Shown piece by piece: positions 6,991 through 11,904 of a stretch of DNA of 64,000 bases. Under the pieces are notes generated by a model. That model saw nothing but the letters and a program-made list of their open reading frames with translations. It searched no databases and was not told where the DNA came from. The stretch's first letter is position 1. Each line of letters starts with the position of its first letter. Origin of the DNA: Methanobacteriota archaeon (GTDB taxonomy: Archaea > JAADCQ01 > Methanopyri > Methanopyrales > Methanopyraceae); NCBI GenBank assembly GCA_027064425.1, contig JAMOPO010000052.1, positions 64,001 to 128,000 on the forward strand, written 5' to 3'. The position numbers and the translations under genes are program-made.

Positions 6991-8010
6991 TCAGACGCGC
7001 GTCCCCGGGATCTCCCGACCGTACTCGCGCAGCAGCTCGCGCATCAGCGAGCGCACGTCCTCCAGGAGCCTCCTGGCCGCCTCCTCATCCCTCTCGACGG
7101 CTAGGCGGGGTAGGACGTCGTACCCTAAATCGTCGACTCGGTCGTCGATCTCGGAGTACTCGGACAGGACCGCGTGCAACTGCGCGAGCCGTTCCGTCCG
7201 CTCAACCCGGTTCAGCGTCCCGTGGACGTACGATCTCAGCGCGCTCTCAAGGTACATGAGCAGCCGGTACGTGAGGTCGCGGACGACGTCGCCCTCGTCC
7301 CGCGGTCCCTCCGGCACCCCGCCCCGGAACACCCGGCTCAGCTCCAGCCCCAGCCTCTCCTCCACCTCCCCCGCGTCCCACCTCGGGGTCTCCGTCTCGA
7401 CCAGGTACTCCAGGCACTCCCGTGGAGACGCCACCCGCTCCACCATGAGCGAGCAGGCCCGGCCCGTGAGCGGGTTGTATCCCACCCGCTCGATGAACCG
7501 GTGCACTCCGTAGGGCCGGATGGGGCACGTGTAGTCCTCGTCGAACCATCCGCATTCCGAGACGATCCGCCGCACGTCCTCCCACGTCCACCGGCGCAGC
7601 GCCGGGTACCGGACCATCGTCACGCCGGGGGGGTATGGGTGGGTCACCCGCCGCCCGTACTTGCCTCGCAGCTCGTGGCCCGTGAGGACCGTGAGCAGCC
7701 CCAGCTGCTTGGCGCGTAGGCAGGCGGCGGTCAGGACCGTCCTCGCGCACTTGGTGCAGATGGGTAGACCGCGCCGGAGGGCTCGGCGGAACCACTCTCG
7801 AAGCCGAACGCGGACGACCTCGTGGCGGAGGCCCAGCCGCTCCGCGCACCTCCTGGCGTTCTCCAGGCACACCTCGTCCAGGAACTCGTGAACGACCGTG
7901 ACCGCCGCCTCCAGACGCCATCGTTCGGAGGCGTGGAGGGCGGTCGCCACGCTGTCCCGGCCGCCGGAGAGCGCCACGCAGGCGGGGTTGCTGGGGCTAG
8001 TCGTGCGCAT
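6991..8010 (-). CDS. PP-loop ATP pyrophosphatase family protein
   Basis: ALSGGRDS PP-loop, PICTKC, LTGHE, YTCP. Confidence 0.75.
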   Translation of the reverse strand: MRTTSPSNPACVALSGGRDSVATALHASERWRLEAAVTVVHEFLDEVCLENARRCAERLGLRHEVVRVRLREWFRRALRRGLPICTKCARTVLTAACLRAKQLGLLTVLTGHELRGKYGRRVTHPYPPGVTMVRYPALRRWTWEDVRRIVSECGWFDEDYTCPIRPYGVHRFIERVGYNPLTGRACSLMVERVASPRECLEYLVETETPRWDAGEVEERLGLELSRVFRGGVPEGPRDEGDVVRDLTYRLLMYLESALRSYVHGTLNRVERTERLAQLHAVLSEYSEIDDRVDDLGYDVLPRLAVERDEEAARRLLEDVRSLMRELLREYGREIPGTRV

Positions 8011-9715
8011 ACACGGCCCTCACACCGCTCGGCCCACACTCCTCGATCCGGGCGAAGTACAGCCGCTCGAACTGCACCGTGCGCCCCGGCTCCTCCCGCT
8101 CCACGTTGGCCTCGACGTAGCCCCTATCCACCGACCCGTCCGGCCGCAGCACCTCGCACGGGATCGCCTGATCCACCGGCACCCAGTGCACGATCCGCGC
8201 CCCCTCCCGTCGCGCGGTCCGGTAGTCCTCACTGTGGTACCGCCCCTGAACGACGCCGTCCCCCACCTCGACGATCTCCACGTTCACCGCGTTCATCAGC
8301 CGGATCAGGTCGCCCTCCTCCAGCTCCTCACCGTCCTCCCGGTCCAGCCAAACGCGACACTCACCGTCCTCCGGATGCAGCACGAGCGCGCGCTCGCCCC
8401 GATCCTTGTCCGGGTGCAACGGGACCGTGGCCGCGTGGGGCTCCTCTAGCCCCTCGATCCGGAGCTCCACCGGGTCCCGGACGAAGAAGTACCGGTTGGA
8501 CTTCGGGTCGATCAGGCGCCGGTTGCGCGAGTACAGCTGCTTCCAGCTGAAGGTCGCGTCCACGTCCGTCAGCCCGATCTCGAGGATCGTCTCACGGAGC
8601 GCCTCGGGCTCGATGCCCCGGCGCCGCAGCGCGCGCAACGTCGCCGTCCGCACGTCGTCCCAGCCCGTGAACTCACCCGACTTAATGCCCTCCTTGATCT
8701 TGGACGTGCTCAGGACGGAACCCTCAACCTTCAGGATCCCGTAGTGCACGTACTCCGGTGTCTCCCACCCCAGGTGCTCGAAGATGAACTCCTGCCGCCG
8801 CGTGTTCGACTCGTGGTCCTTGCCTCGCAGTACGTGAGTAACCTCCATGAAGTGGTCGTCCACGGCGACGGCGAAGTTCATCGTCGGCCAGACGAGGTAC
8901 CGGTCTCCCACCATCGGGTGCTCCTCCTCCACCACGCGGAACGCGACCCACTCGCGCACGGCCGGGTCGGGGTGGTCGACCTTCGTCTTGACCCGCACGA
9001 CCGCCTCGCCCTCCGAGAACGCCCCGTCCAGCATCTCCTCCCACAGCTCGAGGTTCTCCTCGGGCTCCCGAGACCGGCACGGACAGGCCTGTCCCCGGTC
9101 CCGGAGCCGGCGGAACTCGTCGGCGTCGCACGTGCAGACGTAGGCCCCGCCCCGCTCCAGCAGCTCCTCGGCCACCCGGTAGTAGAGCTCCATCCGGTTC
9201 GACTGCACGTACCGCTCGTCCACGCGCACGCCCAGCCACTCCAGGTCCTCCTCGATCATGTCGTACGCCTCCGGGTCCACCCGCCGCGGGTCCGTGTCCT
9301 CGAACCGCAGGATCAGCGTGCCGCCGTACCGCCGGGCGTACTCGTCGTTGAGCACCGCCGCCCGAGCGTGACCCAGGTGCAGCGGCCCGGACGGGTTGGG
9401 GGCGAACCGGAGCCGAACCTCGCCCTCCTTCGCCCCCGGGAGCGGCTTCAGCCCACCCTTCTCCCCCGCCTCCTCTTCCTCCTCCGCGCCGAGCTCCTCC
9501 AGCTCGCGCTTGATCTCCTCCAGGGACATCTTGTTGACTTCCTCGACCACCTCCCGGACGAGCTTGAGCACCTCCTTCGCCCGGTCCCGGTACTCCTCGT
9601 GCTCTCGCATGACCTTCTTCATGACCGCGTTGGGGTTGGCCTTGCCGTCGTACTTGGCCGCGTTCTCCAGCGCGTACCGCCGGATCACGTCCCGAAGCTC
9701 CTCCAGCTCGCTCAC
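7997..9715 (-). CDS. gltX: Glutamyl-tRNA synthetase (archaeal)
   Basis: RFAPNPSGPLHLGH (HIGH motif), LRFEDTDP, LSTSKIK; GTG at 9715 after a G-rich SD. Confidence 0.97.
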   Translation of the reverse strand: MSELEELRDVIRRYALENAAKYDGKANPNAVMKKVMREHEEYRDRAKEVLKLVREVVEEVNKMSLEEIKRELEELGAEEEEEAGEKGGLKPLPGAKEGEVRLRFAPNPSGPLHLGHARAAVLNDEYARRYGGTLILRFEDTDPRRVDPEAYDMIEEDLEWLGVRVDERYVQSNRMELYYRVAEELLERGGAYVCTCDADEFRRLRDRGQACPCRSREPEENLELWEEMLDGAFSEGEAVVRVKTKVDHPDPAVREWVAFRVVEEEHPMVGDRYLVWPTMNFAVAVDDHFMEVTHVLRGKDHESNTRRQEFIFEHLGWETPEYVHYGILKVEGSVLSTSKIKEGIKSGEFTGWDDVRTATLRALRRRGIEPEALRETILEIGLTDVDATFSWKQLYSRNRRLIDPKSNRYFFVRDPVELRIEGLEEPHAATVPLHPDKDRGERALVLHPEDGECRVWLDREDGEELEEGDLIRLMNAVNVEIVEVGDGVVQGRYHSEDYRTARREGARIVHWVPVDQAIPCEVLRPDGSVDRGYVEANVEREEPGRTVQFERLYFARIEECGPSGVRAVYAHD

Positions 9716-9779
9716 GGGCGCTCCCCCCGCCCGCCCCCTTTTCGGTTGACAATAAGCCGTGAGCGTGAGGGGACGGGGG

Positions 9780-9850
9780 TGTCCCCCGCCCTCCGGTCCC
9801 GAGATCATCGAGCGGCGACGGCCGCCTCACCCGGGAGACCCAGACGGGGG
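9780..9850 (-). ncRNA. Box H/ACA-type guide RNA, single hairpin with K-turn
   Basis: Lower stem CCCCCGUC/GGCGGGGG followed directly by ACA; pocket UGGGUC/CCGGAG; upper stem with K-turn (UGA / GAU-GAU); ACA lies 14 nt from the upper stem. Confidence 0.8.
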
Positions 9851-9893
9851 TCATCCTTTGAGGATCTGACCCCCGTGCGCCCGCCCCCGATTC

Positions 9894-9906
9894 GGTTTAA
9901 TTAGTT
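9894..9906 (-). promoter_or_regulatory. Candidate TATA box for the H/ACA RNA / gltX transcript
   Basis: CTAATTAAACC on the minus strand in GC-rich DNA; a similar CTAATTAACC precedes the gene at 21507. Confidence 0.45.
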
Positions 9907-9930
9907 CCCCGGCGCCCGCCCCACGCGCGG

Positions 9931-9946
9931 GGAAAGCTTTTTATAG
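9931..9946 (+). promoter_or_regulatory. BRE-TATA promoter of tRNA-Lys
   Basis: GGAAAGC-TTTTTATAG about 30 nt upstream of the tRNA 5' end. Confidence 0.8.
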
Positions 9947-9975
9947 GACGGGCCCGCTGGCCGGGCCTGGACGCC

Positions 9976-10053
9976 GGGCCGGCAGCTCAGTCTGGTCAGA
10001 GCGCGGGACTTTTAATCCCGTGGTCCCGGGTTCAAATCCCGGCCGGCCCACCA
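9976..10053 (+). tRNA. tRNA-Lys(UUU) with encoded CCA and C at position 8
   Basis: Acceptor GGGCCGG/CCGGCCC, D arm GCTC/GAGC, anticodon arm CGGGA-CTTTTAA-TCCCG, T arm CCGGG-TTCAAAT-CCCGG, 3' ACCA. Confidence 0.97.
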
Positions 10054-10119
10054 GCCCGGATCGTTACGAGTCCCAAAACGTTTCGTGTGTAATAACGACC
10101 GCCCGGGGCGTGGGGGCGT

Positions 10120-11904
10120 CTACATCCGCTCGAGCGCCGGGATGCCGAGCAGGTTCATGACGTTCTCCATGACGATGGTGAACGCCTCGACCAGCTTCAG
10201 CCGCGCCTTTCGGACCTCCTCGTCCTCCGCGTGCAGCACCGGCACCTCCTCGTAGAACGTGTGGAACGCCCGGGCGAGCTCGTAGGCGTACTCCGCCAGG
10301 ATGTCCGGGCGCCGCTTCCGCACGCACTGAGCCACCTGCCGCGGGAACATGGACATCTTGAACACCAGCTCGAACGAGTGATCGTCGTCCAGGTAGGCCG
10401 CGTCAAACCGCTGCACCTCCTCGTCAGCCTGCCGCAGGATCGACTTAGCGCGCGTGTAGGCGTACTGGATGAACGGGCCGCCCCGGCGGAAGTCCAGGGC
10501 CTCGTCCCAGTCGAACTCTATGGGCTTGTTCGGGCTGACGCGGGCGATGGCGAACCGGACGGCCCCGATGGCCACGTTCTCCGCGATCTCCTCCCGCTCC
10601 TCCTCGTCCAGGTCCTCGGCGACGCCCGCCTCCTTCATCTTCTCCAGCGCGCGCTTCTTGGCCTCGTCCAGGAACTCGTCCAGGGTCACGTACCGGCCCT
10701 TCCGGGTCGACATCGAGCCCTCGGGCAGGTGGATGAACTCGTAGAAGATCACGTCCACGCGGTCCGGGTCCGCGTCCAGGATGTCGAGCACCGCCTTCAG
10801 CTGCTGCACGGCGAGCTTGTGGTCGGCCCCGAGCACGTCGATGACGAACGCGGCCCGCTTGAGCTTCCACAGGTGGTACGCGATGTCTCGCGTCGTGTAG
10901 AGGGTCGTACCGTCGCTCCGGGTGAGCACGAGCTCCTTGTCGATCCCGTAGTCCTCCAGGTCGAGGATCACGGCCCCGTCGTCGCGCTTCTCCGCCGCGC
11001 CCATGTCCACGAGCTTCTCGACGATCTCGACCGCATCCTCCACGAACTCGCTCTCGTACACGAACCGATCGTGGGCCACGCGGAGCCGCTCCAGGGTCTC
11101 GATGTGACCCTTTAGGCACTCCTCGACCACGACCTGGAACGCCTCCGCGATGCGCTCGGCCCGGGACTCCTCGTCCAGCAGGTACCGCTCGTAGGAGCGC
11201 AGGAAGCGCTCCACGACCTCCTCCAGCTCGGGGTCCTCCTCGATCTCCTTCGCGGCCTCCGCGTACAGCTCGCCGAAGAACTCGTCCGGCTTCTTGTCCT
11301 CTGGAACCTCCGGCCGCCCCTCCTTGATGTACTTCCAGGCGAGCATCGCGATCTGCTTGCCCATGTCGTTCACGTAGTACTGCACCTCAACGTCGTAGTT
11401 CGTGAACACCATGCACCGGGCCAGGATGTCGCCGATGATCGCGTTCCTGCCGTGGCCGATGTGGAGCGGGCCGTTCGGGTTCGCGCTGGTGTGCTCCAGG
11501 ATCGCGGGCCGACCCATGCCCAGGTCCAGCGAGCCGTACTCCTCCTCGTAATAGAAGATCGATCGCAGGACGAGGGCGGCGTACTGGGGCCGGTTCAGCC
11601 TGATGTTGATGTAACCCGGCCCGTCCACCCGGGCCTCGTCGACGAGGACGACCTCGTCCAGGTCCGACTCCTCGAGGATCGTCTCCGCGATCTTCCTGGG
11701 CTCCTCGCCCACCTCCTTCGCCAGCGAGAGGGCGACGGGCGTGGCCACGTCCACGTCCTCGACCGGTGGCTCCGGATCCACCGGCACCTCCACGGGCTCG
11801 TCGACGTCGTACGCCGAGGAGATGGCGTCGCGGATCGAGGTCCGGATCGTGCGGACGAGAACCGAGTACGGGTCGTGGGGTGGAGCCTCCTCTTCCTCCG
11901 CCAA
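10120..11904 (-). CDS. argS: Arginyl-tRNA synthetase
   Basis: EHTSANPNGPLHIGHGRN, RSDGTTLY, MSTRKG, IQYAYTR. Confidence 0.97.
   Translation of the reverse strand: MAEEEEAPPHDPYSVLVRTIRTSIRDAISSAYDVDEPVEVPVDPEPPVEDVDVATPVALSLAKEVGEEPRKIAETILEESDLDEVVLVDEARVDGPGYINIRLNRPQYAALVLRSIFYYEEEYGSLDLGMGRPAILEHTSANPNGPLHIGHGRNAIIGDILARCMVFTNYDVEVQYYVNDMGKQIAMLAWKYIKEGRPEVPEDKKPDEFFGELYAEAAKEIEEDPELEEVVERFLRSYERYLLDEESRAERIAEAFQVVVEECLKGHIETLERLRVAHDRFVYESEFVEDAVEIVEKLVDMGAAEKRDDGAVILDLEDYGIDKELVLTRSDGTTLYTTRDIAYHLWKLKRAAFVIDVLGADHKLAVQQLKAVLDILDADPDRVDVIFYEFIHLPEGSMSTRKGRYVTLDEFLDEAKKRALEKMKEAGVAEDLDEEEREEIAENVAIGAVRFAIARVSPNKPIEFDWDEALDFRRGGPFIQYAYTRAKSILRQADEEVQRFDAAYLDDDHSFELVFKMSMFPRQVAQCVRKRRPDILAEYAYELARAFHTFYEEVPVLHAEDEEVRKARLKLVEAFTIVMENVMNLLGIPALERM

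Follow-up and report, generated by a model that had tools for sequence, protein, structure and literature searches.

Which RNA, if any, is encoded by a minus-strand hairpin lying between a lysine tRNA gene and the gene for glutamyl-tRNA synthetase in an archaeon of the Methanopyri, and on which rRNA nucleotide would it act? We addressed this question in a window of 64,000 nucleotides (contig JAMOPO010000052.1, positions 64,001 to 128,000; coordinates below are those of the window), which belongs to an assembly of 57 contigs, 1.54 Mb and 68% G+C. The locus is a real, conserved box H/ACA guide gene that is expressed in a congener and that Rfam does not detect. Judged from its complementarity to rRNA, its most likely job would be pseudouridylation of U8 at the extreme 5' end of 16S rRNA.

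Architecture and genomic setting of the hairpin

The small RNA (sRNA) gene is of the single-hairpin box H/ACA type and spans window positions 9873 to about 9750 on the minus strand, flanked by a divergent tRNA-Lys(UUU) gene on one side and the glutamyl-tRNA synthetase gene on the other. Its H/ACA hairpin comprises 71 nt (9850-9780, minus strand; limits recovered again on a second look) and reads CCCCCGUC-UGGGUC-UCCCGGG-UGA-GGCGGC-CGUC-GCCGCU-CGAUGA-U-CUCGGGA-CCGGAG-GGCGGGGG-ACA. The features of the locus are as follows.

10123-11904, minus strand: arginyl-tRNA synthetase gene, further upstream of the hairpin
9976-10053, plus strand: tRNA-Lys(UUU) gene, divergent from the sRNA and the sole Rfam match over threshold in the window
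9896-9903, minus strand: putative archaeal TATA element, the A/T-rich box UAAUUAAA, a box found in 6/6 aligned genomes
9851-9873, minus strand: 5' leader GGGGUCAGAUCCUCAAAGGAUGA, with invariant AGA (9867-9865) and GAUGA (9855-9851); start at 9873-9871 placed by homology only
9843-9850, minus strand: lower stem, 5' strand CCCCCGUC, pairing with 9783-9790 over 8 bp
9837-9842, minus strand: pocket, 5' guide strand UGGGUC, invariant in 6/6 genomes
9827-9836, minus strand: upper (GA) stem, 5' strand UCCCGGG (9836-9830, pairing with CUCGGGA at 9803-9797), and K-turn UGA
9811-9826, minus strand: apical C-stem and loop, GGCGGC CGUC GCCGCU, a 6-bp stem with a tetraloop; loop GGCCGUCGCC invariant
9797-9810, minus strand: K-turn bulge and GA (CGAUGA), U layer and upper stem 3' strand CUCGGGA, read directly; UGA invariant
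9791-9796, minus strand: pocket, 3' guide strand CCGGAG, invariant in 6/6 genomes
9783-9790, minus strand: lower stem, 3' strand GGCGGGGG, pairing with 9843-9850
9780-9782, minus strand: ACA box, invariant, 14 nt after the pocket-closing pair
9750-9779, minus strand: 3' tail, with a conserved C-run and a U-rich CUUAUU (9756-9751) near its end, which is placed from poor alignment only
8000-9715, minus strand: glutamyl-tRNA synthetase gene (gltX), GUG start at 9715

A preliminary description of this DNA had proposed an 8-bp lower stem followed by ACA on the minus strand, pocket strands UGGGUC and CCGGAG, a K-turn upper stem and the canonical 14-nt spacing from pocket to ACA. Each of these elements is present, the pocket strands at 9842-9837 and 9796-9791 and the K-turn at the level of sequence. 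The lower stem of 8 bp could be lengthened to 9 bp by a U.G pair (9842/9791). The predicted K-turn would consist of a U.U layer and tandem sheared G.A/A.G pairs, in which UGA (9829-9827) faces GA of CGAUGA (9806-9805), next to a 3-nt bulge, GAU; the upper stem would thus stack 7 pairs, the U.U layer and 2 sheared G.A pairs, or 10 layers in all. According to PMC4652768, productive archaeal H/ACA guides have 10 stacked layers and 14-15 nt to the ACA, and the hairpin has both the 10-layer GA stem and the 14-nt distance. As read from the predicted fold, it is of type '10/5/9' (or 10/6/8) as Toffano-Nioche et al. (PMC4652768) denote such folds, and '10/5/9' is described there among the fold types of crystallised guides and of the majority of productive Pyrococcus guides. 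The atypical H/ACA class of Sulfolobus and Pyrobaculum lacks the lower stem and ACA box; here both are present and conserved, which places the sRNA outside that class.

The proteins with which such a guide would assemble are encoded in the same genome, with matches over the curated cut-offs for Cbf5 (480.8 bits), Nop10 (84.2 bits), Gar1 (31.9 bits) and L7Ae (102.4 bits). The Pyrococcus versions of such proteins are reported to work with guides of foreign origin (PMC11077068). The sRNA also lies in a translation-related cluster (7997-11904) composed of the arginyl-tRNA synthetase, tRNA-Lys(UUU), H/ACA sRNA and glutamyl-tRNA synthetase genes.

The sequences on either side of the hairpin allow alternative folds. 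In the leader, the invariant AGA and GAUGA are flanked by GGGGG/CCCCC, and it could form a K-loop hairpin, a possible second L7Ae site, in competition with the lower stem; two pairs of this putative hairpin are broken in one congener (G005). In the RNAalifold prediction it is instead the tail CCCCC to which the leader GGGGG pairs, and these pairs show no covariation. The 3' tail opens with an exact copy of the lower-stem 5' strand CCCCCGUC (9779-9772), and an alternative hairpin GGCGGGGG-ACA-CCCCCGUC, in which the tail repeats that strand, is therefore possible on paper. The C-run of the tail is conserved in 6/6 genomes, with a register shift in G004. The leader as found in this window further includes the letters of the 3' half of the predicted 16S target discussed below, as GAUCCU (9866-9861). 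A box C/D reading of the GAUGA ... CUGA motifs around the hairpin was rejected, CUGA being found only in congener G002. For one Methanopyrus kandleri H/ACA RNA, PMC3695527 mentions a C/D guide directed against the leader; the one 12-nt antisense match to the leader found here (C56:~4735) was dropped, as it lacks a C box and appears to be coding sequence.

Conservation and covariation of the sRNA, and expression of its orthologue

A strict architecture descriptor returned three matches in the 1.54-Mb genome, the sRNA hairpin among them. Applied to 10 first-order Markov genomes of equal size and dinucleotide content, the same descriptor gave 1, 0, 0, 2, 1, 1, 0, 0, 1 and 1 matches; because this averages 0.7 matches per simulated genome, the motif alone is only mildly unusual and by itself weak evidence. 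Minimum free energy folding was no better than for shuffled sequence (z = -0.11) and is uninformative in 68% G+C DNA. The preliminary description had suggested a search of Rfam for a known family. In a scan of the window at gathering and permissive thresholds no H/ACA family rose over threshold, the best H/ACA match being HgcG (RF00064) at 7.6 bits (E = 6.3, versus a threshold of 77), and RF00060 (HgcE) finds nothing in the complete congeners G001 and G002 (0/2). Class membership stands nonetheless: the sRNA belongs to the box H/ACA class but to no curated Rfam family.

What lifts the hairpin above chance is its conservation in 5/5 congeners, covariation of its pairs and RNA cover in a congener. 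The hairpin DNA was found in 5/5 same-genus (Methanopyri) genomes and in 0/25 other archaeal genomes, and it is the best-conserved part of the spacer, with diverging sequence on either side of it. In the resulting alignment of six genomes the pocket strands, the GA dinucleotides of the K-turn and the ACA are all invariant, and AGA and GAUGAC of the leader are unchanged in 6/6 sequences. Covariation was computed on the 5 distinct sequences, for which 95.2% of 105 cells (21 pairs x 5 sequences) hold standard pairs, compared with 36.5-66.7% in a slid control with partners moved by 1-3 columns. Changes on both sides occur in 3/21 pairs (UA/UG/CG; CG/UA; AU/CG/GC) and in 0-1 pairs of the slid controls. 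All 8 lower-stem pairs are standard in 5/5 distinct sequences, one of them as UA/UG/CG, and one pair of the apical C-stem (AU/CG/GC) has changed on both sides; the closing pair of the upper stem varies between U-A, C-G and C.A, with a C.A mismatch at this pocket-closing pair in 3/6 genomes. The covariation score was reached by 2/500 shuffles. Since the sequences are so few, and since at least as many doubly changed pairs arise in 212/500 shuffles, we regard the covariation as supportive, not decisive.

Expression was read from the orthologue in the complete congeneric genome G002, in a 341-nt stretch (locus L018), part of which is represented in five RNA runs from two studies; the preliminary description had asked for small-RNA data, and the deep cover found is that of the congener's orthologue rather than of this organism. 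Contigs from two size-fractionated small-RNA libraries (X1 and X2), which as used here cannot define RNA ends, strand or level, cover L018:1483-1600 at a summed depth of about 10^3 to 5.5x10^4, with 0-7 over the rest of the 341 nt. The corresponding RNA has 116 nt, of which 22 make up the leader, 71 the hairpin and 23 the tail past the ACA, and is homologous to about 9873-9750 of the window; leader and tail both lie inside the RNA-covered stretch and inside a permuted contig. In this contig, which comes from X2 and has a depth of 1757, position 1598 is followed by 1483, giving a permuted junction and a 116-nt molecule, and a contig from a hydrothermal-vent metatranscriptome of the second study (X5) is permuted as well, from 1600 to 1499, with 7 other letters between. 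The G002 H/ACA RNA thus seems to exist as a circle. The 5' end placed by homology lies about 27 nt downstream of the conserved A/T-rich box, as expected for an archaeal promoter. Circular forms of an 'H/ACA box sR109' are on record for Sulfolobus solfataricus (PMC3326292), so a circular H/ACA guide is not new.

The deepest X1 and X2 contigs stop at L018:1508-1518, just before the ACA, with runs of about 20 T attached. Such T runs may reflect tailed minus-strand RNAs shortened at the 3' end and without ACA, or a library artefact, and the dominant RNA species in G002 might lack the ACA.

Two readings would deny the hairpin a role as a trans-acting guide. The rate at which the descriptor fires on random genomes, together with a folding energy no better than that of shuffled sequence, would allow for a fortuitous H/ACA-like hairpin in very G+C-rich DNA, but such a hairpin would hardly be kept in 5/5 congeners while its flanks diverge, show covariation and very deep small-RNA cover (in G002), and match a target at about p = 0.01-0.035; we consider this extremely improbable. 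The hairpin might alternatively be a structured 5' leader element of the gltX mRNA, for example a regulatory K-turn bound by L7Ae, as it lies directly upstream on the same strand, with the gltX start codon about 65 nt downstream, in a synteny that is kept upstream of gltX in the closest relatives. In G002, however, RNA cover is confined to about 116 nt and falls from about 10^3-10^4 to 0-7 toward gltX, the permuted junction shows a discrete excised molecule, and a leader of this kind would leave the complementarity to rRNA, the invariant pocket and the ACA box without a role; a gltX leader is highly unlikely. That the window element is an H/ACA guide RNA is, in our judgement, very likely.

The predicted 16S target and its competitors

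The assembly of this genome holds no 16S or 23S gene, and we therefore read the target from the congeners. In 4/4 congeneric genes the 5' end of 16S rRNA is ACUCCGGUUGAUCC, with a start (again 4/4) of the form ...UAA-CUCCGG-UU-GAUCC-UGCCGGAGG. The target CUCCGG-U-N-GA(U/C)CC, which the preliminary description had derived from the pocket, is thus carried at the 16S 5' end by all four; the alignment of the pocket with 16S that it called for succeeds on the congeners' genes, this genome's own being absent from the assembly. The 3' guide strand CCGGAG forms 6 Watson-Crick pairs with CUCCGG (nt 2-7), and GGGUC of the 5' guide strand forms 5 pairs, one of them G.U, with GAUCC (nt 10-14), leaving U8-U9 unpaired. 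The U8 site therefore offers 6+5 = 11 contiguous pairs, 10 of them Watson-Crick, and is the top guide site in 16S and 23S of G001 and G002 and in 16S of G003, the three genomes covered by the guide-site scan; 16S of G004 carries the same 5' end. We take this U8 to correspond to E. coli U13, by hand alignment, and presume it to be the same nucleotide as U8 of Sulfolobus.

The strength of the match was gauged with random pockets under three null models. At least 11 contiguous pairs anywhere in G001 16S and 23S were found for 5/400, 11/400 and 14/400 pockets, and at least 11 contiguous pairs with at least 10 Watson-Crick for 1/400, 2/400 and 3/400; the guide duplex, of only 10-11 bp with one G.U, is hence equalled by 1-3.5% of random pockets. 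The 35 tRNAs searched offer no site of more than 7 pairs, and no tRNA competes for the guide. The preliminary description had also held that archaeal 16S rRNA starts with C or U ahead of a common motif. Position 2 is C in the four congeners, and in three other archaeal 16S with the same core motif it is U (L001 and L002, AUUCCGG) or A (L004, AAUCCGG); this comparison covered 16S loci that contain an exact 9-mer probe, with five further 16S loci being without it.

Protein binding and modification are the steps that we infer here. L7Ae would bind the K-turn, and Cbf5-Nop10-Gar1 would bind the ACA and the lower stem. Precursor 16S rRNA would dock into the pocket, its nt (2)3-7 paired to CCGGA(G) of the 3' strand and its nt 10-14 to GGGUC of the 5' strand. 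U8-U9 would be left unpaired at the top of the pocket, where Cbf5 would isomerise U8, the first U of CCGG-UU-GAUCC, to pseudouridine. With the guide in place, neither the helix 1 5' strand nor the loop that forms the pseudoknot could pair within 16S. The guide strand CCGGAG has the same sequence as nt 17-22 of 16S, the helix 1 3' strand, so that guide binding and formation of helix 1 should exclude each other, and modification would therefore have to precede folding of the 5' domain. The suggestion of a pseudouridine guide for about U13 is thus supported by the best-site match and by the Sulfolobus U8 precedent, the modification itself being predicted; no pseudouridine map for the genus was found in the literature consulted. 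Because H/ACA-guided pseudouridine at U8 is established in Sulfolobus islandicus (PMC11077068), the U8 reading is plausible but much less novel than the preliminary description implied.

A second rRNA site competes with U8. In the context CCUCUGG-UG-GACCGG, about 210 nt from the 23S 3' end, U2887 of G001 (U2889 of G002) could be the main or an additional substrate of the guide: its 10 contiguous pairs (6+4) include 9 of Watson-Crick type, no further site apart from U8 combines 8 or more contiguous pairs with a 3' arm of 4 or more, and archaeal H/ACA pockets are described as often serving two to eight sites (PMC2377435; PMC11077068). This duplex is one pair shorter than that at 16S U8, however, its G.U falls in the more important 3' arm, and in 23S of G004 a U for G beside the unpaired dinucleotide breaks the first pair of the 5' arm while the G004 guide is unchanged; we consider the 23S site an unlikely substrate. 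Other readings concern what the RNP does at the 16S 5' end. It might act mainly as an assembly chaperone that holds the helix 1 5' strand and the central-pseudoknot loop open in the manner of U3 or snR30, with modification absent or secondary. That the 3' guide equals the helix 1 3' strand while the 5' guide covers the loop GAUCC, so that binding excludes helix 1, would accord with such a role, as would the slowed growth reported on deletion of the Sulfolobus U8 guide (PMC11077068). Yet the overlap with helix 1 is not specific for a chaperone because any U8 guide must pair in that way; the geometry sets a U where productive guides place it (14 nt to the ACA, 10-layer GA stem; PMC4652768), and the Sulfolobus counterpart does modify U8 (PMC11077068), all of which makes a primary chaperone function very unlikely. 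A more elaborate version, in which the sRNA is an archaeal counterpart of U3 whose helix 1 mimicry and pseudoknot-loop cover time the folding of the 16S 5' domain, and whose leader, repeat and circle form a switch between inactive and active guide, appears to us quite unlikely, and any chaperone or timing role beyond the exclusion of helix 1 is possible as speculation. We thus retain 16S U8 as the probable main target of the guide.

Eukaryotic U3 (box C/D) and snR30/U17 (box H/ACA) RNPs contact the precursor of small-subunit rRNA by base pairing, in the case of U3 around its 5' end and the pseudoknot region; both act without modifying, through conserved boxes of their own, and have essential processing roles. 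Pairing of the U3 and snR30 type with this precursor is also described in PMC7601244. The likeness between U3 and the sRNA is one of position only.

Related guides within and beyond the genus

Three systems bear on the U8 assignment. In S. islandicus, 16S-U8 is a mapped pseudouridine guided by sR109, an H/ACA RNA of atypical form, on the evidence of gene deletion and in vitro work, and the homologous 16S site is predicted for Pyrobaculum (both as stated in PMC11077068). As described there, that system resembles the present one in its target, the UU after CCGG at the extreme 16S 5' end, and in having a K-turn, a bipartite guide and dependence on Cbf5, and the circular form of S. solfataricus sR109 (PMC3326292) is matched by the permuted contig of the G002 orthologue; we assume the two Sulfolobus RNAs to be orthologous from their shared name. 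In structure, however, sR109 is atypical and belongs to the Sulfolobus lineage, whereas the Methanopyri sRNA is canonical, with lower stem and ACA. The idea of H/ACA guidance at 16S U8 is accordingly not new, having its precedent in Sulfolobus (PMC11077068).

The second system is motif 2 of Pyrococcus abyssi Pab105 and P. furiosus Pf3 (RF00060, HgcE), for which a pseudouridine was detected at 16S-27 in P. abyssi numbering, or 15 in P. furiosus numbering (PMC2377435). Like the sRNA, Pab105 is a canonical hairpin of a euryarchaeal hyperthermophile that pairs with the helix 1 / central-pseudoknot segment, but it has two hairpins and several targets where the Methanopyri sRNA has a single hairpin. 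An HgcE copy in a Thermococcales genome has the pocket UCUCCGGA / GGGAUGG, read by eye as pairing with AUCC-UG-CCGGAGG; by this reading of our own, Pab105 would target the U in GAUCCUGCC, which lies 7 nt further downstream than the U8 predicted here. The third comparison is with Methanopyrus kandleri, for which small-RNA sequencing gave six H/ACA box sRNAs (PMC3695527). These share with the sRNA both its genus-level lineage and its RNA class, one of them is described with a 5' leader region as found here, and an orthologue of the sRNA may already be among the six (PMC3695527).

Counterparts outside the genus were sought with a covariance model (R1) built on the hairpin and searched over 150 genomes. 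Besides the six copies of the genus it picked up a single hairpin from Thermococcales (G098, 40.9 bits); the latter was rejected as a relative, its 3' pocket CGUUAC not fitting the 16S start, and represents a different guide in a multi-hairpin RNA. R1 thus found no relative outside the genus in these 150 genomes. We also searched with a strict pattern for canonical U8 guides (arm, 8 nt, GA, gap, GA, 8 nt, CCGGA, 8-10 nt, ACA). With a GGGUC arm it matched 11/401 genomes, 5 in the genus and 6 others, against 7 genomes for a reversed-pattern control, G001 being missed because of a 1-nt insertion. The 6 matches outside the genus were discarded: 3 are antisense of tRNA genes and 3, read by eye, are without a complementary stem. 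With a GGAUC arm the pattern matched 2/151 genomes, the control also 2, and by eye neither match is hairpin-like. No canonical U8 guide was thus found outside the genus in 401 (GGGUC) and 151 (GGAUC) genomes, a statement confined to the canonical form since the pattern misses bulged, ANA-box and atypical guides. A metagenome scan with a loose pattern returned at least 80 loci, and among the matches listed none fits R1 at E <= 0.01.

Several other H/ACA-like hairpins came to light. The stretch L030:1361-1571 of G098 (Thermococcales family f7) holds three consecutive H/ACA-like hairpins scoring 22.4, 17.2 and 40.9 bits with R1, and is probably a known multi-hairpin Thermococcales H/ACA sRNA. A further H/ACA-type hairpin of the genus (L031:1501-1569 in G003, L032:1501-1569 in G005) scores 26-27 bits with R1 and has its best rRNA match, of 5+4 pairs, at 23S 1972/1974 (GCAGUGAC-UA-GGGG). 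The second match of the architecture descriptor in this genome, G000:C3:25966-26049 (plus strand), looks like another H/ACA hairpin, with 8 nt of pairing between its 5' guide and 23S ...UG-CUACCUCGA, near position 2692 of the congener 23S, which we take to be in the peptidyl-transferase region. The third, G000:C15:165212-165283 (plus strand), has H/ACA architecture with the pocket GCGGCA / CAACG, which makes at most 6 contiguous pairs with rRNA and has no convincing target.

For annotation, these results add an RNA gene that had gone unannotated and lies below Rfam detection. In the sRNA, a methanogen from a deep branch of the Euryarchaeota would possess a guide of canonical form, ACA included, for 16S U8; the guides on record for that site so far are atypical and crenarchaeal. 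Counting Pyrococcus Pab105, the helix 1 / central-pseudoknot segment would then be a target of H/ACA RNPs in three lineages. Pseudouridine at the extreme 5' end of 16S rRNA may thus be widespread in hyperthermophilic archaea, achieved with unrelated or strongly diverged guides, and a role of the modification, or of guide binding, in assembly of the 30S subunit in the heat becomes directly testable.
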